Counted from the stretch's first letter, positions 2,412 to 57,946 are shown. The stretch is DNA of 64,000 nucleotides from a bacterium (GCA_030693325.1 JAUYAV010000011.1:109603-173602); one strand, 5' to 3'. Notes: generated by a model from the letters alone, not told the origin. Numbers and translations are program-made.

Positions 2412-3734
2412 TTAAAATTTATTATTAAATTTGTAATTTGCAAAGGCCAAAAACAGGAAAAGATTAATGTAAATCGGCAAAACTTCAAAGAGAACAACGC
2501 CTTGAACCAAATAAGCTATAGGGAGAGCAAATATCAGCGCGGACTGATACGGACTTAACGCTGATTTGCGCATCTTTTTTAAAAATTGCCAATAGAAAAC
2601 AATAAAAATTGAAAGATAACTTAACAGCCCCAAAATGCCGGTTGTTGTCAAATAATCGAAAAAAATGTTGTGAGCGCGGTCGAACCAAACCGTAAATTGC
2701 GGCAGATGATATTTTTCAATAGCCGGACTGAAATTCTCCGGCCCCCAGCCGAGAATCGGCCTTTCTTCAAAAATTTTAATTGATTGTTTCCAGAGAAAAA
2801 ATCGCGTTTGTAAATTTTCGGTGCTTAAATTGATATCCAAAATTCTATTTCCACCCTGGCCTTCATTTTTACAAAAAGGCATTAGATCTATGGAACTGCG
2901 ATATTTGAATCCTAGCCATCCAAAAATTATCAAAACAATAATTACAAACAAAATTATTTTCCGGACGCGGCCGGATGGCAGACGGAAAAAGAGATAAGAC
3001 AAACCGGCTAAAACACCGGCGGCCAATCCCAAAAATGCTCCCCGGGTTCCGGAAAAAATCAGAATTATCAAAAATAAAACCATTAAACTCCCCCAAAGCC
3101 ATTTTTTCAAAGACGCAAACTTATGCGGACCGGACGCGGACTGGCGCAGGCCATTAATAAGCAGATAGCCGGCGTAGAACAAAGCGAAAATCATAAAAGT
3201 GCCGATGTAAGCCGAATTTCCCAAAGAACCGGCGAACCGCTCACAAATACCAGGACCTATAAAACCAGATATTTTCAAAGCGGCGGCGAATCCATAGGCA
3301 ATTACCAAAACCGCCACCAACGCCGAAACAATAAACATTCTCCGCCAGGCCTTTTCATCTCTAAAGAGTAAACCTAATAAAACGAAGAAAATAAAAAGAT
3401 GCAGCATCTGCAATCCGCCTTCTCCACGCTCAAAATTGGACCAGAAAGAAGCGGAAGGATCATAACCTAAAAATCCCGCCAGCAAAAATATCAAAGTAAA
3501 AACCGAAACCGCGATTACCAAGGGGGTTAAAATTTTTAATTTTAACTTTGAAAATTGAAATTCTCCCCTCACCCAAGCCCAAAGAAAAAATATCAGGGCT
3601 AATTCCACCACTACCCGGAAAAAGACATATTTGCCGACAATAAAAGGAAATAGAGTGCTTCGGGAAACAATCAAAACAGTAAAAGGCACCAAATAAAGGA
3701 AAAATTTTGAAAGTTTTGAAAATAAATTAATCAT
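2412..3734 (-). CDS. O-antigen ligase/polymerase-like polytopic membrane protein (Wzy_C-like)
   Basis: About 10 predicted TM helices with a large periplasmic loop; sits in a glycan locus. Confidence 0.5.
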   Translation of the reverse strand: MINLFSKLSKFFLYLVPFTVLIVSRSTLFPFIVGKYVFFRVVVELALIFFLWAWVRGEFQFSKLKLKILTPLVIAVSVFTLIFLLAGFLGYDPSASFWSNFERGEGGLQMLHLFIFFVLLGLLFRDEKAWRRMFIVSALVAVLVIAYGFAAALKISGFIGPGICERFAGSLGNSAYIGTFMIFALFYAGYLLINGLRQSASGPHKFASLKKWLWGSLMVLFLIILIFSGTRGAFLGLAAGVLAGLSYLFFRLPSGRVRKIILFVIIVLIIFGWLGFKYRSSIDLMPFCKNEGQGGNRILDINLSTENLQTRFFLWKQSIKIFEERPILGWGPENFSPAIEKYHLPQFTVWFDRAHNIFFDYLTTTGILGLLSYLSIFIVFYWQFLKKMRKSALSPYQSALIFALPIAYLVQGVVLFEVLPIYINLFLFLAFANYKFNNKF

Positions 3735-10090: not shown

Positions 10091-10750
10091 TTATTGGCTG
10101 AAAGTTACGGCAGGTTTGAGCTGGTAATAAGTTCCGGGACCGCCGGGGCCAACCCGTTCAATCATCCCCTCTTCGCAAAATTTCTGAAGGTCGTAGCGGA
10201 GTGTTCTTTCGCTTGTGCATGGGAATGCGGCAACCAAATCTTTAATCCGGCAATTCTGAACTTGCCGCATTATATCTATAATTGCCGATTTCCTCATTAC
10301 CGCATTTTCCTTGTCTTTTTCCACCACGGCCGCCTCTTCTTGTCCTATTTCGTCTACTTTGTTATCAACTACCATTGGCATTGCCGATTTAGCTATAGAT
10401 TCATTATTATTCTGCGTTGGTGTTGAGGTTTGGAAAAACTCTTCTAAATTCAATTCGGCAATTGCCGAATTATTTTGCCTGACGGCCGTATTAAGATTGC
10501 CGATTTCCCGCAATAGCACCTGCGATTGAAGATAACTTATTTCTCCTATGCCTTGGCTGAAATTCATTAAAACTTCTAAAAGCGAAAGTGAATTGCTTAA
10601 AGACAAATTGTTATTTGAAGAACCGGCTTCCAAGAGATCAAGCCCCGCTTTTTCCAAACGAGTTCTTAAATCGGCATTTTTTATGCCGTCTCCCAAACGA
10701 AAAACGACATAACAAATTTCATAGGCCTTTTGAGTAAAATTAAATAACAT
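10091..10750 (-). CDS. DNA-binding protein with C-terminal DeoR-type winged HTH and N-terminal helical domain
   Basis: C-terminus RKSAIIDIMRQVQNCRIKDLVAAFPCTSERTLRYDLQKFCEEGMIERVG matches the DeoR-like wHTH pattern. Confidence 0.45.
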   Translation of the reverse strand: MLFNFTQKAYEICYVVFRLGDGIKNADLRTRLEKAGLDLLEAGSSNNNLSLSNSLSLLEVLMNFSQGIGEISYLQSQVLLREIGNLNTAVRQNNSAIAELNLEEFFQTSTPTQNNNESIAKSAMPMVVDNKVDEIGQEEAAVVEKDKENAVMRKSAIIDIMRQVQNCRIKDLVAAFPCTSERTLRYDLQKFCEEGMIERVGPGGPGTYYQLKPAVTFSQ

Positions 10751-10801
10751 TAAACTTCAGTATCCTATATTTGATGATTGAATGTCAAGAGGTTTCAAGC
10801 A

Positions 10802-10937
10802 AACCAAACTTGTCTGAGAAAATATCCCGCAGGCGTCCAAAGATTGGTCTCCGCGAAGCGGAGTTTGGACGCCGAGGGAAAAGAAAATTTTGCCGCTGGA
10901 GCAAAATTATTCTGGTTTTCGAAGGCAAGTTTGGTTT
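10802..10937. ncRNA. Candidate structured ncRNA, copy A (unclassified family; strand unresolved)
   Basis: Ends pair over about 20 bp (ccaaacttgtctgagaaaat / attctggttttcgaaggcaagtttgg). Nested hairpins gcgtccaaa-[gattggt]-ctccgc-GAA-gcggag-tttggacgc and aattttgc-cgctgga-gcaaaatt. Homologous to 27727..27942 with compensatory stem replacements. The track ORFs 10771..11067 and 10778..10984 are spurious. Confidence 0.55.
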
Positions 10938-10993
10938 GCGGAAAACCGAAAAGACTTTGGCTGGCGGAAAAAGTTTTGGAATGAAGTTGACAA

Positions 10994-11022
10994 CCGGTTT
11001 TAAATTGATTAGATTGATAAAT
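10994..11022 (+). promoter_or_regulatory. Sigma-70-like promoter for groES (TTGACA-N17-TAGATT) followed by a short palindrome in the 5' UTR
   Basis: ttgacaaccggttttaaattgattagatt, then atcaaaaaggtcgttttttgat (inverted repeat) before the ATG at 11064. No CIRCE consensus seen. Confidence 0.45.
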
Positions 11023-11063: not shown

Positions 11064-13003
<1,940 letters not shown>

Positions 13004-16128: not shown

Positions 16129-16159
16129 TTTTTGATAAAGTATTTCCAGATAATAATAA

Positions 16160-16201
16160 TTTACTATTGTAATTCCACGATCGTGGAATTACAATAGTAA
16201 A
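16160..16201. repeat. 42-bp perfect palindrome tttactattgtaattccacga|tcgtggaattacaatagtaaa (copy 1 of 3)
   Basis: Exact reverse-complement symmetry. Copies are identical at 33214..33255 and near-identical at 47652..47693. Confidence 0.8.
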
Positions 16202-16208
16202 TGGCAAA

Positions 16209-27659: not shown

Positions 27660-27675
27660 AACGATCTCTACTAAA

Positions 27676-27716
27676 ATAAAAAGGAGTTGGCGTCGGCTAA
27701 CTCCTTTTTATTTTAA
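27676..27716. terminator. Bidirectional rho-independent terminator between alaS and the ncRNA/rpsI region
   Basis: aaaaaggagttggcgtcggctaactcctttttatttt (A-run, hairpin, T-run). Confidence 0.65.
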
Positions 27717-27726
27717 AATCTGACCT

Positions 27727-27942
27727 AACCAAACTTGTCTGAGAAAATATTCCATAGCCAAGCGCCGTAGGACTTACGCAGTTGCCTTGAAGAATATCCC
27801 GCAGTCCCGACGGGCTTGGTTTCCGATGAAATCGGAACCGTCGGGACGAGGGAAAAGAAAATTTTGTCGCTGGAGCAAAATTATTCTGGTTCTGAAAGGC
27901 AATTGCGGAAGTCCTGCTTCTGTTTTCGAAGGCAAGTTTGGC
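27727..27942. ncRNA. Candidate structured ncRNA, copy B (same family as 10802..10937, about 80 nt of insertions)
   Basis: Same terminal helix (ccaaacttgtctgagaaaat / ttcgaaggcaagtttgg). Homologous hairpin gtcccgacgg-[gcttggt]-ttccgat-GAA-atcggaa-ccgtcgggac with entirely different but still complementary stem sequences. Conserved core gagggaaaagaaaattttgYcgctggagcaaaattattctggtt. Lies between the alaS terminator and the rpsI stop. Track ORFs 27697..27969, 27787..28041 and 27816..28037 are spurious. Confidence 0.55.
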
Positions 27943-27953
27943 TGGGTCTATCC

Positions 27954-28421
27954 CTATCTCTTCGCCCATTGCGGCGCGCGACGGGCTTTCTTAAGACCGA
28001 ATTTCTTCCGCTCTACCATCCGGGGATCTCTTTTTAGATAACCCAAGCCCTTAATAAGGGCTTTTAAATTAGCATCAAACAAAACCAAAGCCCGTGATAA
28101 ACCATGGCGCACCGCTTCGGCTTGGCTGCTCATTCCCCCGCCTGAAACTCTGACAGTGACATCTGCCTTGCCATTCAGTTTTGTTTTTTCCAAAGGAGAA
28201 AAGGCCATTTGCTGAAGACGGGCTGTGGGGAAATATTTGAGATAATCTTTTTCATTCACCAAAACGCCGCCCGCGCGGTTGTAAAGCCGAACCCGGGCGA
28301 TGGCGGTTTTTCTTCTGCCAACCGCTTCAAAATAACGGTCTGTTTTAACTTTAACAGGCGAAGGCTTGCTTACTTTTTCAACTTTTTTTACTTTTGCTAC
28401 TTTTGTTATTTTTTCAGCCAT
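27954..28421 (-). CDS. rpsI: 30S ribosomal protein S9 (with N-terminal Lys/Val-rich extension)
   Basis: GRRKTAIARVRLY...VRVSGGGMSSQAEAVRHGLSRAL...KKARRAPQWAKR. Confidence 0.93.
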   Translation of the reverse strand: MAEKITKVAKVKKVEKVSKPSPVKVKTDRYFEAVGRRKTAIARVRLYNRAGGVLVNEKDYLKYFPTARLQQMAFSPLEKTKLNGKADVTVRVSGGGMSSQAEAVRHGLSRALVLFDANLKALIKGLGYLKRDPRMVERKKFGLKKARRAPQWAKR

Positions 28422-33192: not shown

Positions 33193-33213
33193 ATAAGTTT
33201 CTTGAATTTAAAA

Positions 33214-33255
33214 TTTACTATTGTAATTCCACGATCGTGGAATTACAATAGTAAA
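33214..33255. repeat. 42-bp perfect palindrome (copy 2 of 3), 22 nt upstream of the annotated comEC start
   Basis: Identical to 16160..16201. Confidence 0.8.
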
Positions 33256-33261
33256 TTAATT

Positions 33262-34440
33262 TTAGAATATTATTCCCCCGCCTAACATCTCGCCTGCTTT
33301 GCTGTAAAAAACCGCTGATTGGCCGGAAGCTACGAATTTGACGGGTTTAGCAAATAATAAACAGTAACTAGCAACTAGGGGTTTTCTATTCTTTCTAGTT
33401 ACTAATTCCTTGTTACTAATTACTAGTTCCGCTTTCGCTAACGGTTGTCTATATCGTACTCTTGCTAAAACTCCTATTCTCTTATTCGCGCGAATTAGAG
33501 AAGAAAAATAATCGGGGTTGATAAAATTCACGTCTTTTAATTTAATTTCTTTTTTATAAAGCGCCGGGTTATTTTCGCCCTCAGCCACGATTAAAACGTT
33601 GTTTTTGACGTCTTTAGCCGCCACGTAATAGGGTTTTTTGCCGGAAACCTCCAGGCCGTGCCGCTGACCGATGGTGAAATAAAAAATTCCCGGATGCCGG
33701 CCGACGACTTTACCTTCGGTAGTGATAATTTTGCCTGGCTTCTCCTTAATTTTCTTTTTCAGAAATTCCTTAAGTTTCACCTCGCCGATAAAACAAATAC
33801 CTGAAGTGCCTTTTTTCAAAGCATTTTGTAATCCTAATTTCTCCGCCATCTGCCGCACTTCAGATTTCAAATAATCGCCTATCGGAAAAAGGCAGTATTT
33901 TAATTGCTCTTGATTTAAGGTCCATAAAAAATAACTTTGGTCTTTTTCTTTATCTTTAGCTTGATAGGGTTTATAAAAAGTTTTTAGTTTTAAGTTTTTA
34001 GTTTTAAGTTTAATGTAGTGTCCGGTCGCGATGAAATCCGCGCCCATTTTTCTGGCTCGTTTCAAAAAAAGAGGAAATTTTATGAGTTTGTTGCATTGAA
34101 TATCAGGATTGGGAGTTCGGCCGGCTTTGTATCCCCGGAACATATAATCCACCACCCATTTCCGGTATTCTTTTTCAAAATTAAAAGTTAGAAGCGGAAT
34201 GCCGAGCTTGGCCGCGACTCTGATGGCGTCCCGTCTTTCGTCAATCCAGCAAAGAGATTTCTTCTTGGAATAAGTTTCCACCGGCTGGGTCCAGTTTTTC
34301 ATAAAGACGCCGGTCACATCATAGCCCTGTTTTTTCAACAGCGCCGCGGCTACGGAGCTGTCTACCCCGCCGGACATTGCCACGAAAACCTTATTTTTGG
34401 GAGATTTTGTCATAAAAGATTCTCCTATATAATTGCCCAA
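33262..34440 (-). CDS. mnmA: tRNA-specific 2-thiouridylase MnmA
   Basis: PP-loop VFVAMSGGVDSSVAA, catalytic Cys region, C-terminus GGGIIF. Contains a small internal tandem repeat (gttttaagtttttagttttaagttt) coding KLKTKNLKLK. Confidence 0.88.
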   Translation of the reverse strand: MGNYIGESFMTKSPKNKVFVAMSGGVDSSVAAALLKKQGYDVTGVFMKNWTQPVETYSKKKSLCWIDERRDAIRVAAKLGIPLLTFNFEKEYRKWVVDYMFRGYKAGRTPNPDIQCNKLIKFPLFLKRARKMGADFIATGHYIKLKTKNLKLKTFYKPYQAKDKEKDQSYFLWTLNQEQLKYCLFPIGDYLKSEVRQMAEKLGLQNALKKGTSGICFIGEVKLKEFLKKKIKEKPGKIITTEGKVVGRHPGIFYFTIGQRHGLEVSGKKPYYVAAKDVKNNVLIVAEGENNPALYKKEIKLKDVNFINPDYFSSLIRANKRIGVLARVRYRQPLAKAELVISNKELVTRKNRKPLVASYCLLFAKPVKFVASGQSAVFYSKAGEMLGGGIIF

Positions 34441-47594: not shown

Positions 47595-47651
47595 ATGAGC
47601 TACGGACGAATTTTTATATTATACACTACCGTTTTAATTTTCAAAATATAA

Positions 47652-47693
47652 TTTACTATTGTAATTCTGCGATCGTGGAATTACAATAGTAAA
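47652..47693. repeat. 42-bp palindrome (copy 3 of 3; 2 mismatches in the left arm), 58 nt from tRNA-Lys
   Basis: tttactattgtaattctgcgatcgtggaattacaatagtaaa. Confidence 0.75.
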
Positions 47694-47786
47694 TTGTTTT
47701 CATCCGGTTCTGCTTGGTTTTCCTTACCAACAAACAAAAATAGTTTGAAGTATTGATTTTTTATAGATATTTTCGAGATGAAGCTT

Positions 47787-52386: not shown

Positions 52387-52448
52387 CTTGATTAAATTTT
52401 ATTTCTATTGATTTGCCTTTCAAATTTTATTTCTATAAAATGAAGTCA

Positions 52449-52750
52449 TTCCGACGTAGCTCAGTGGTAGAGCGACTCCCTGTAAATTTAAAATTGCAGC
52501 TTTCCCGAGTAATCGGGATTGAAAAACGAGGTGAATTCGGGGAAACCCTATAAAAGGGCAATCCCGAGCCAAGCCCCGACTTAACGTCGAGGAAGGTGTA
52601 GAGACTATCCCGAAAGGGAGTACTCCAAATAAAATTGGGGGAAGCGCCTCGCACCCTCTAAAAAAGAGGGTGATGATATAGTCCGTCCCCAATGGAAACT
52701 TTGGGATAAACGTAAGGAGACGGTCGTAGGTTCGAATCCTACCGTCGGAG
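52449..52750 (+). tRNA. tRNA-Asn (anticodon GUU) interrupted by a group I intron between anticodon-loop positions 35 and 36
   Basis: Exons: UCCGACG-UA-GCUC-AGUGGUA-GAGC-G-ACUCC-CUGU | UAA-GGAGA-CGGUC-GUAGG-UUCGAAU-CCUAC-CGUCGGA-G. The spliced anticodon loop CUGUUAA is the canonical tRNA-Asn loop. The 5' exon ends in U and can pair with an intron GCAG guide; the intron ends in G. Track ORFs 52420..52692 and 52433..52654 are spurious. Confidence 0.8.
52483..52712 (+). ncRNA. Group I self-splicing intron (230 nt, no ORF) within tRNA-Asn
   Basis: Conserved core elements: P-like AAAUUGCAGC, R-like GUGUAGAGACUAUCC (P7 5' strand), S-like GAUGAUAUAGUCCGUCC (P7 3' strand / P9.0). Size and anticodon-loop location resemble the compact bacterial tRNA introns (Anabaena tRNA-Leu, Azoarcus tRNA-Ile). 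Confidence 0.8.
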
Positions 52751-52754
52751 CAAA

Positions 52755-52783
52755 CAAAAAATCGCCTATTGGGCGATTTTTTG
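52755..52783 (+). terminator. Rho-independent terminator after tRNA-Asn (near-duplicate at 57846..57872)
   Basis: caaacaaaaaatcgcctattgggcgattttttgg versus caaacaaaaatcgccaatacggcgattttttgg. Confidence 0.65.
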
Positions 52784-52956
52784 GTAGAATAAATTTATAT
52801 TAAATCAAATATAGTCGGAATTATTTTCATCGTACTTGGTATACTATTAGCCACAATCAACAAGGGATTGGTAGGCACATTTCTTGGATCAGGAATAACA
52901 ATTACTGTAATAAACATTCTTAAATATTACAAAACAAAGAAAAAAGGATAACTTTT

Positions 52957-57773: not shown

Positions 57774-57845
57774 AGCAGGTATGTAAATATACTCATTTCC
57801 CCTCTCAAAGATAGTTCTAACGTTATCCACAACGCGGAGCCAAAC
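57774..57845. repeat. Intergenic repeat R1 (caggtatgtaaatatactcattt ... agttctaacgttatccacaacgcggagcc); paralogue at 59067..59133
   Basis: About 70% identity over about 65 nt between the two copies. Each begins with a near-palindrome gtatRtaaatatac and sits directly 3' of a + strand gene. Confidence 0.5.
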
Positions 57846-57872
57846 AAAAATCGCCAATACGGCGATTTTTTG
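57846..57872 (+). terminator. Rho-independent terminator (near-duplicate of the one after tRNA-Asn)
   Basis: aaatcgccaatacggcgattttttgg. Confidence 0.6.
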
Positions 57873-57946
57873 GTACACTAAAGCGATAAAAGGTCAATAA
57901 AAATGCTATAATGATTACTACCAATCTTGATTAAAAAATATGAAAT

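Follow-up and report, generated by a model that had tools for sequence, protein, structure and literature searches.

A branched palindromic repeat in Patescibacteria: two copies in one genomic window, their wider family and a possibly selfish nature

The stretch of DNA analysed here, 64,000 nucleotides of a bacterial genome (GCA_030693325.1, JAUYAV010000011.1:109603-173602; hereafter the window), carries two related intergenic elements on its + strand, copy A and copy B (Table 1). Copy A lies between a divergent helix-turn-helix (HTH) gene and groES, outside both adjoining transcription units, and a weak + strand promoter-like site was found near it (10744-10771). Copy B lies between alaS and the convergent rpsI. 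With a terminator hairpin intervening between it and alaS, copy B has its + strand beyond the alaS terminator and its − strand inside the rpsI 3′ untranslated region (UTR). An earlier note on this DNA had named the HTH gene, the groES promoter, the alaS terminator and the rpsI stop as the neighbours, and Pfam (HTH_DeoR, Cpn10 (GroES), AlaRS and S9), a promoter scan and the sequence confirmed them all.

The two copies share a 42-nt core, GAGGGAAAAGAAAATTTTGYCGCTGGAGCAAAATTATTCTGG, which occurs exactly twice in the window (10874-10915 and 27848-27889, with a single-base difference between the copies) and in none of 100 shuffled sequences, bearing out the claim of two homologous elements at these + strand loci. 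When a covariance model of the wider family (see below) was run over the 64 kb, copies A and B were the only matches, and the next match reached 14 bits. Copy A folded at −66.3 kcal/mol on the + strand (z −7.6 versus shuffles) and at −56.7 on the − strand, and copy B at −106.8 (z −11.3 versus shuffles) and −84.7, respectively, so that + is the better-folding strand, as had been stated. Both adopt a three-way junction of a long terminal stem (P1) and two hairpin domains (P2 and P3). In the pairwise alignment, flanking and junction segments are identical around a two-tier hairpin whose stems have no common sequence in the two copies and are perfectly paired in each: GGCGTCCAAA / GATTGGT / CTCCGC-GAA-GCGGAG / TTTGGACGCC in copy A and GTCCCGACGG / GCTTGGT / TTCCGAT-GAA-ATCGGAA / CCGTCGGGAC in copy B. 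The earlier note had described this shared architecture, and the sequence confirmed it. Other details had to be redrawn. The locus of copy A stands, but its ends, given as 10802-10937, move outwards once the full P1 pairing is included. AUUCUGG, which had been assigned to the terminal helix, forms the base of the P3 hairpin plus one junction nucleotide, and the core hairpin, described as 8 bp, has 13 pairs with two bulged A residues. The roughly 80 extra nucleotides of copy B had been taken for free hairpin-forming insertions; copy B is instead a complete element lodged inside the P1 arms and leftover junction of a second element that belongs to a different subtype. The same nesting recurs in other genomes (L034/L039, L063, L066 and L038), and the arrangement of the outer 5′ remnant is shared by L034, L067 and L039.

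Table 1. Coordinates of copies A and B, their parts and the adjoining genes, counted from the first nucleotide of the window
Feature	Position	Strand	Evidence
Copy A, complete element (141 nt), subtype-T1 terminal stem	10799..10939	+	covariance model match 10808-10929, 129.1 bits; fold; P1 pairing
Copy A P1 5′ arm, GCAAACCAAACTTGTCT-GA-GAAAAT	10799..10823	+	partner 10915-10939; tandem G.A/A.G internal loop
Copy A P2 domain	10825..10879	+	fold and sequence; family pair counts for both P2 helices
Copy A P2 base UCCC/GGGA, then internal loop GCA/GA	within 10825..10879	+	
Copy A P2a, 10 bp	10832-10841 with 10864-10873	+	
Copy A P2 bulge GATTGGT	10842-10848	+	
Copy A P2b hairpin	10849-10863	+	
Copy A P3 hairpin, invariant base AGAA/UUCU, variable middle	10882..10913	+	core match, fold, family counts
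Copy A P3 conserved apex CCGCUGGAG	10893-10901	+	
Copy A P1 3′ arm, GTTTTC-GA-AGGCAAGTTTGGTTTGC	10915..10939	+	sequence, fold, P1 pairing
Copy B, composite (nested) element (215 nt)	27727..27941	+	fold, alignment
Copy B outer 5′ remnant: T1-type P1 arm, degenerate junction AAAATATTCCATAG (cf. AAAATATCCCGCAG), spacer	27727..27766	+	alignment; repeat-family grouping
Copy B inner complete element, subtype T2 (151 nt)	27767..27917	+	covariance model match 27780-27903, 128.4 bits; P1 extension
Copy B inner P2	27797-27853	+	bulge at 27814-27820
Copy B inner P3	27856-27887	+	
Copy B outer 3′ remnant, TTCTG-TTTTC-GA-AGGCAAGTTTGG: T1-type junction and P1 3′ arm	27918..27941	+	sequence, alignment, fold
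HTH_DeoR gene, divergent, upstream of copy A	10091..10750	-	Pfam
groES promoter-like site	10987-11015		promoter scan
groES, downstream of copy A	11064-11354	+	Pfam
alaS bidirectional terminator-like hairpin, between alaS and copy B	27677..27709	.	sequence; hairpin matches 27670-27717
rpsI (S9), convergent to copy B	27954..28421	-	stop 27954-27956, 12 nt from copy B 3′ end

Neither window element matched Rfam 15 at the gathering threshold. When the cutoff was relaxed to E ≤ 10 and 10 related loci were included, nothing consistent was obtained, only scattered sub-threshold matches such as Clostridiales-1 at 16 bits and PrrB/RsmZ at 12-18 bits, in agreement with the previous view that the elements belong to no known RNA family. 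A literature search for RNA motifs or repeats of the candidate phyla radiation (CPR), and for the motif strings, returned nothing relevant. Relatives of the two copies were collected with two degenerate patterns. One, anchored on the junction and the P3 loop, was run on metagenome-assembled genomes (MAGs) of Patescibacteria and gave 21 true matches in 10 MAGs, 6 of them in a single Kerfeldbacteria MAG; the other, anchored on the P2 side, gave 29 true matches in groundwater and sediment metagenomes. The segments that each scan left unconstrained were nonetheless conserved. A covariance model built from 38 sequences scored 47 full copies at 80-133 bits and detected two divergent copies at 25.5 bits (L030, Kerfeldbacteria) and 19.9 bits (L023). 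The family thus comprises about 50 copies, each about 120-220 nt long, in Patescibacteria/CPR MAGs and groundwater metagenomes; where the P1 extension was traced, element lengths ran from 121 to 180 nt. Record titles assign the hosts to Kerfeldiibacteriota, Harrisoniibacteriota, Paceibacterota and Saccharimonadota, four candidate phyla of the NCBI taxonomy. The highest copy number, 7, was found in one Kerfeldbacteria MAG, with 6 standard elements and 1 divergent one. As to viral contigs as carriers, all 8 scan matches proved to be chance matches in coding DNA, and blastn of the element against phage and plasmid collections gave no match.

In the consensus fold of all members, the strands of the three-way junction are 1, 2 and 1 nt long and there is no central bubble. 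P1 is a long stem, frequently with a tandem G.A/A.G internal loop, that is closed by an invariant U.G pair and extends for a further 10-26 bp beyond the core model. It is followed by one purine, a 4-bp UCCC/GGGA stem, a GCA/GA internal loop and then P2a, which measures 10 bp in nearly all copies and leads to a bulge on the 5′ side, G(C/A/U)UUGGU; the P2b hairpin above the bulge is a variable tip, free in both length and sequence. The junction strand AA separates P2 from P3, which consists of an AGAA/UUCU base, a variable middle and the apex CCGCUGGAG, and a single G after P3 closes the junction. About 45 unpaired nucleotides are near-invariant in the family, and the near-invariant unpaired and junction segments are AUAUCCCGCAG, the GNUUGGU bulge exactly 10 bp up P2, CGAGGGAAAAGAA, CCGCUGGAG and AUUCUGG. 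The termini are not conserved family-wide: subtype T1 has GCAAACCAAAC, subtype T2 has GGACTTCCGC, and the Kerfeldbacteria have variable arms. L024 and L030 have identical cores and different termini. Of the P1 arms, the 5′ side is rich in A and the 3′ side in U, most markedly in Kerfeldbacteria. A pseudoknot between bulge and loop (UUGG with CUGG) was considered and rejected, as only the divergent copy of L030 provided a suggestive compensated case and L032, L057 and the divergent copy of L023 did not support it. Small palindromes are being inserted into the element itself: L044 and L068 carry an extra perfect hairpin (CCTGCCTGCCGGCAGGCAGG or CCTGTCTGCGGCAGGCAGG) directly after GAGGGAAAAGA in the P3 region, and L051 has an additional perfect hairpin, CCGTCAGCTGACGG, after P3.

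The claim that structure is kept while stem sequences change holds for the whole family. In the 38-sequence alignment, 96.2% of the pair cells were canonical, compared with 35-55% when the 3′ partners were slid, and 27 of 40 pairs showed changes on both sides. To take such covariation as proof of a functional RNA over a repeat, as the earlier note did, is too strong. Helix alleles in the clade of the window (two types of P1, three or four of P2a and three of P3) were seen in nearly all combinations, and the family ‘covariation’ is therefore largely a reshuffling of whole helices. Two Kerfeldbacteria copies, for example, are identical in P2 and P3 and have P1 arms that differ yet are each self-complementary. 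G.U intermediates were also few. The G.U and A.C pairs numbered 5 and 6 in P2a, 3 and 5 in P2b, and 5 and 2 in P3, which makes these helices almost purely Watson-Crick, with a G.U share in P2/P3 of at most about 1%, equal to that of A.C. This scarcity suggests helix swaps together with homogenisation of the arms at the DNA level. Template switching or arm-to-arm conversion in inverted repeats is known to be able to preserve the complementarity of the arms and to invert the spacer (PMC8794818, PMC8604942). P1 contained 87 G.U pairs versus 8 A.C pairs, although 47 of the 87 came from the invariant closing pair. The strand that reads GAGGGAAAAG (+) was more stable as RNA in 46 of the 47 full elements, and the difference averaged −9.6 kcal/mol, whereas the two strands of copy A were about equal when DNA parameters were used (−46.8 versus −43.1 kcal/mol). 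Because P2 and P3 are almost purely Watson-Crick and the DNA fold is strand-neutral, only P1 carries an RNA-type strand signature.

Orthologous sites differ in whether they hold an element. The alaS-rpsI spacer is filled in the window, L022, L058, L059 and L067, with differing subtypes, and empty in the relatives L077/L078 (75 nt, terminator only) and L073-L076; in relatives with 71-79% identical S9 it measures only 54-104 nt. The L077 spacer consists of a bidirectional terminator hairpin alone, and in L022 the element is the sole hairpin between the convergent genes. In L076, the S9-adjacent spacer without an element (2969-3051) contains TTTTAAAATCTAACCAAAC, a near-match to the left flank and first bases of copy B, which may be a scar or a preferred target. 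The 104-nt spacer of L070/L072 (L070 2954-3057; S9 77% identical) lacks a full element and has a hairpin, TCTGC-CGCTGGA-GCAGA, that bears the P3 loop motif of the family, is not seen by the covariance model, and is flanked by GCGGCA...TGCCG, resembling the inner P1 of Kerfeldbacteria copies; this hairpin may be a minimal or decayed relative. Nested, chimeric and solo-half copies are common; besides copy B, examples were found in L033, L037, L057 and L030. At 1990-2220 in L030, a solo 3′ half from a standard element (GGTGCCGCGTGAAAGATGTGCTCAGCTTTTCCCTCTT) comes immediately after the divergent copy, whose flanks are homologous to those of the L011 copy, which suggests that copies have been rearranged with one another. 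In Logan, the contigs of the organism from which the window comes terminate inside the core.

The copies have no fixed partners and are found mostly at the ends of genes. Within about 4 kb of 23 copies, no neighbouring protein family recurred and no Y1/HUH or integrase gene was seen in the flanks, consistent with the earlier statement that the elements are independent of their neighbours. For 28-29 of the 47 copies, a convergent gene had its stop codon no more than 45 nt from the P1 3′ end, at a median distance of 11 nt, and three such stop codons were inside P1 itself. In 9 copies a co-oriented upstream gene ended ≤45 nt from the 5′ end of the element. Overall, a stop codon was within 45 nt on either side in 37 of 47 copies, and the antisense orientation behind stop codons was in 3:1 excess. 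Upstream of the copies there was no −10 enrichment (TAnnnT in 17 of 45 copies, versus 17 and 15 in control windows). One element, in L069 upstream of 1469 (− strand), is located about 20 nt downstream of a tRNA 3′ end (GGTTCGAATCCCGTCCACCGCGCA). When the variable hairpin arms were searched against the window as possible guide sequences, only self matches were returned, and this idea was dropped.

Read on the antisense strand, P3 leads into the invariant UUCUUUUCCC, which is complementary to the invariant GGGAAAAGAA. A terminator scanner made antisense-strand calls at P3 in L013 and L022, in the latter on the sense strand as well; P3 of the two window copies, whose stems are A+U-rich, was not called. 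This terminator-like antisense P3 and the 3:1 antisense excess behind stops suggest that copies, once resident, either serve the adjoining gene as its terminator or are tolerated in that role. A terminator role cannot account for the conserved junction, bulge and loop. The divergent copies have these three features and lack the A/U tracts. P3 in the copies that the scanner calls, and P1 in some lineages, resemble bidirectional intrinsic terminators in being G+C-rich stems between an A tract and a U tract. Such terminators are unbranched, and the sequence of their loops is not conserved, nor do they have conserved bulges or junctions.

Four copies are inside genes. All four are in frame and free of stops, and the genes are conserved (cysteine desulfurase twice, and Wzy_C in two genomes). 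In L023, a 487-residue cysteine desulfurase open reading frame (ORF) spans a standard element (antisense) and the divergent element (sense). It matched Pfam Aminotran_5 at 2.5e-66 in three separate stretches, and its alignment to the structure 9wep_A is split into three blocks (query 4-91, 146-224 and 280-485 with chain 5-93, 99-177 and 182-384), indicating two insertions of about 50 residues at the elements. The Wzy_C genes of L029 and L034 are orthologues that carry the element at an identical residue position, one copy being inverted relative to the other; both frames stay open, and the Wzy_C sequence is conserved on both sides of the element. Stop codons averaged 0.5-1.1 per frame in all six frames of the elements, versus 2.2 in composition shuffles, with 2.3 open frames per element versus 0.67, although this is a rough test, as the copies are not independent. 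Element length modulo 3 showed no bias. An exhaustive phmmer search of 1.84 billion representative proteins with the element-encoded peptide yielded 3 proteins, and a profile search yielded 1.

Bacterial repeats of 100-200 bp that form long stem-loops by end pairing are known between genes and in frame within ORFs, and Rickettsia palindromic elements (RPE) occur in conserved genes (PMC2229807, PMC10969869). RPE-1 to RPE-10 of Rickettsia are 105-150-bp palindromic repeats of small-genome, host-dependent bacteria whose ends pair into a long stem (PMC2229807, PMC10969869). As in the present family, RPE are both intergenic and in frame in conserved protein genes, with no known transposase and no clear target-site duplication. 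However, nearly half of the copies of some RPE families are intragenic compared with about 8% here, and the present family differs in its conserved internal three-way junction, invariant loops, variable termini and insertion into genes in both orientations. It also belongs to another host clade and spans several candidate phyla. Because that clade is unrelated, what we claim is a similarity of behaviour and not RPE membership.

The ERIC/IRU, Correia/NEMIS, RUP and YPAL repeats are also about 100-200 bp long, with transcripts that fold stably by pairing of the 5′ and 3′ ends (PMC2229807). They are mostly at gene ends and co-transcribed with their neighbours, with some open frames and some polymorphism between filled and empty sites (PMC2229807). 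Unlike our family, they have conserved terminal inverted repeats, usual TA duplications and some links to insertion-sequence transposases; in our family no such duplication was found, the ends are unconserved, the branched core is conserved, and stems differ instead of decaying. REP/BIME and REPIN repeats with RAYT are likewise extragenic palindromes behind stops, possible terminators or stabilisers, for which strand-specific recognition of hairpins is plausible. Yet REPs are simple hairpins of 20-40 nt in hundreds of copies, whereas the present element is a three-way junction of 120-220 nt and no RAYT was seen. The conserved G(C/T)AG 5′ of the P2 hairpin does, by inspection, recall the GTAG of REP. 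Integron attC sites have the consensus R″/R′ (RYYYAAC ... GTTRRRY), and the T1 ends CCAAAC...GTTTGG are one base off each; the ends in other lineages are unrelated, and the neighbours are housekeeping genes and not cassettes. Compared with classical MITEs (miniature transposable elements with inverted repeats), the family termini differ between lineages and there is no consistent target-site duplication. The fallback offered in the earlier note, a degenerate MITE, is nevertheless closer to the evidence in being MITE-like; the copies themselves are intact, not degenerate. The note had also raised 6S RNA, which shares the size range and long terminal stem and has two paralogues in some bacteria. 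Against it, Rfam gave no 6S match, the fold is a three-way junction where 6S RNA is rod-like with a central bubble, a genome can have as many as 7 copies, a promoter signal is lacking and some copies are inside ORFs. No known self-cleaving ribozyme or group I/II intron in Rfam matched the element.

On balance we lean towards regarding copies A and B as intact members of an undescribed non-coding palindromic repeat family specific to Patescibacteria/CPR, which would be selfish and non-autonomous and behave like RPE, ERIC or Correia elements, and not as genes of a host small RNA (sRNA). Such an element would multiply in genomes, be gained and lost at given sites, recombine module by module with its paralogues and flip its orientation in place. 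Copies would survive where they do little harm, either just behind stop codons or in frame and free of stops in tolerant protein loops. We propose that a folded single strand of the GAGGGAAAAG polarity (RNA or single-stranded DNA) is recognised by a trans-acting enzyme for propagation, on the grounds that junction, bulge and loop are conserved and that this strand consistently folds better. The near-perfect but differing stems could be maintained by arm-to-arm homogenisation or template switching, by whole-helix exchange and by selection that favours a foldable intermediate. An element that has settled behind a gene may act as its terminator or 3′-end hairpin, which would explain the 3:1 antisense excess, because it is on the antisense strand that P3 precedes UUCUUUUCCC.

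Several observations weigh against this interpretation. No transposase, reverse transcriptase or other partner enzyme was found in the copy flanks, and no target-site duplication, TA or target motif was consistent across 47 flank pairs. Conservation is internal and the ends are variable, unlike in classical MITEs. Only 4 of about 50 copies are inside genes, and the element-encoded peptide turned up in no more than 3 proteins, so that RPE insert into genes far more often. Both pattern scans demanded exact motifs, which biases the distribution and the apparent invariance of the anchored positions. Finally, the strict core is near-identical across very distant CPR lineages. Together with the 10-bp spacing of the bulge and the invariant U.G pair, this would fit an RNA with a tertiary fold or a bound protein, so that a host function for the core remains conceivable.

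Such a function could take the form of paralogous trans-acting RNAs, for example a ribonucleoprotein scaffold, a protein sponge or a 6S/Y-RNA-like molecule, transcribed from the GAGGGAAAAG strand, with the junction, bulge and P3 loop as binding surface and P1 as a stem for processing or stability. The very strong conservation of unpaired nucleotides across candidate phyla while all stems vary, the fixed 10-bp P2a and U.G pair, the better + strand fold in 46 of 47 elements, the restriction of the tandem G.A loop and the G.U pairs of P1 to the + strand, and the position of copy A outside the neighbouring transcription units, near a weak + strand promoter-like site, all argue for it. We nonetheless consider it improbable. 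Promoters are not enriched and there is no terminator of its own, many copies are at or over stop codons on one side with no room for a promoter on the other, some are within ORFs in both orientations, orthologous sites can be empty and the distribution is patchy, some copies are chimeric or halves, and no 6S, signal recognition particle (SRP) or Y RNA matched in Rfam. For the same reasons (no −10 enrichment, abutment or overlap with stops, copies inside ORFs) the independent sRNA gene of the earlier note is a weak idea and finds no support; the note's observation was confirmed, and its interpretation is partly supported. A host cis-element, namely an elaborate and possibly factor-binding terminator or 3′-UTR stabiliser at CPR gene ends for which multiplication is secondary, is in our view equally improbable. 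It would agree with the proximity of 37 of 47 copies to a stop codon, with a P3 plus UUCUUUUCCC that is called terminator-like when read antisense, and in T1 copies when read in either direction, with the A-rich and U-rich P1 arms, and with the lone hairpin between alaS and rpsI in L022. But a terminator would not need the conserved three-way junction, bulge and loop, which the divergent members keep without A/U tracts; an ordinary bidirectional terminator is already present beside copy B; copy A does not mark the end of a gene; as terminators, the intragenic copies would do harm; and the better-folding strand is antisense to the adjoining gene.

The strand question bears on the possibility that the element works as DNA, as a folded single strand or cruciform that is the substrate of a strand-specific recombinase or HUH-type nuclease in the manner of REP/RAYT, IS200/IS605 or attC. 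The almost purely Watson-Crick P2 and P3 with G.U equal to A.C, the nearly equal folding of the strands with DNA parameters, the lack of any target-site duplication found, the opposite orientations at the one Wzy_C site and the REP-like G(C/T)AG are all in keeping with this. Against it, no Y1/HUH or integrase gene was seen in the flanks, P1 has an RNA-type asymmetry with G.U pairs and tandem G.A on one strand, and the ends have no conserved target tetranucleotide or attC R-box; we regard this explanation as very unlikely. Even less weight can be given to a catalytic or self-processing RNA carried by the repeat, for instance a novel self-cleaving ribozyme or something akin to a small intron. 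A multi-stem junction with about 45 near-invariant unpaired nucleotides, free stems, multiple copies, no fixed context and a patchy phylogeny would suit it, and the antisense excess beside genes could reflect selection against cleavage of host mRNA. However, no ribozyme or intron family matched even at E ≤ 10, the four intragenic copies are frame-open in both orientations, which would be needless if they were spliced out, and no cleavage-site logic was identifiable. Beyond the selfish repeat that we favour, the family might be a new class of structured single-strand mobile element that spread across candidate phyla, with the invariant three-way-junction core as its active part, either catalytic or recognised by a CPR-wide enzyme, and that inserts behind stop codons as well as in frame in essential genes; we rate this bolder proposal as rather unlikely. 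If true, the way in which RPE-type ‘protein-coding palindromes’ move could be studied in this family as a tractable model, and the family might represent a new functional RNA fold.

Other features of the window were seen alongside the two copies. A group I intron (52480-52705; Rfam Intron_gpI, 83.4 bits) splits the anticodon loop of a tRNA gene at 52446-52760 (+), which ARAGORN does not call, and the exon halves are visible on both sides. The intron is the sole intron match in the window and is unrelated to the repeat family; it fits the group I introns recently described in Patescibacteria tRNA genes (PMC13011429). A second, unrelated repeat, a near-perfect palindrome of about 44 bp (AATTTACTATTGTAATTCCACGATCGTGGAATTACAATAGTAAATT), has three intergenic copies (16148-16208, 33202-33262 and 47640-47700). 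Two related terminator-like hairpins (CAAAAAATCGCC...GGCGATTTTTTGG) at 52746-52808 and 57835-57897 are 76% identical over 63 nt. GC skew in the window tracks gene orientation.

Genomes of CPR/Patescibacteria are tiny, streamlined and usually called repeat-poor. A multi-copy, cross-phylum repeat that breaks assemblies in such genomes therefore matters for MAG quality and gene calling. The element extends or splits ORFs and adds about 49 residues to enzymes such as cysteine desulfurase. For RNA discovery, the family is a caution: in a selfish element, helix swapping and homogenisation of inverted repeats can give rise to “compensatory” stems that look textbook-like. A specific mechanism of recognition or catalysis is what the invariant junction, bulge and loop point to, and this makes RPE-like palindrome mobility testable in a second and much broader lineage.

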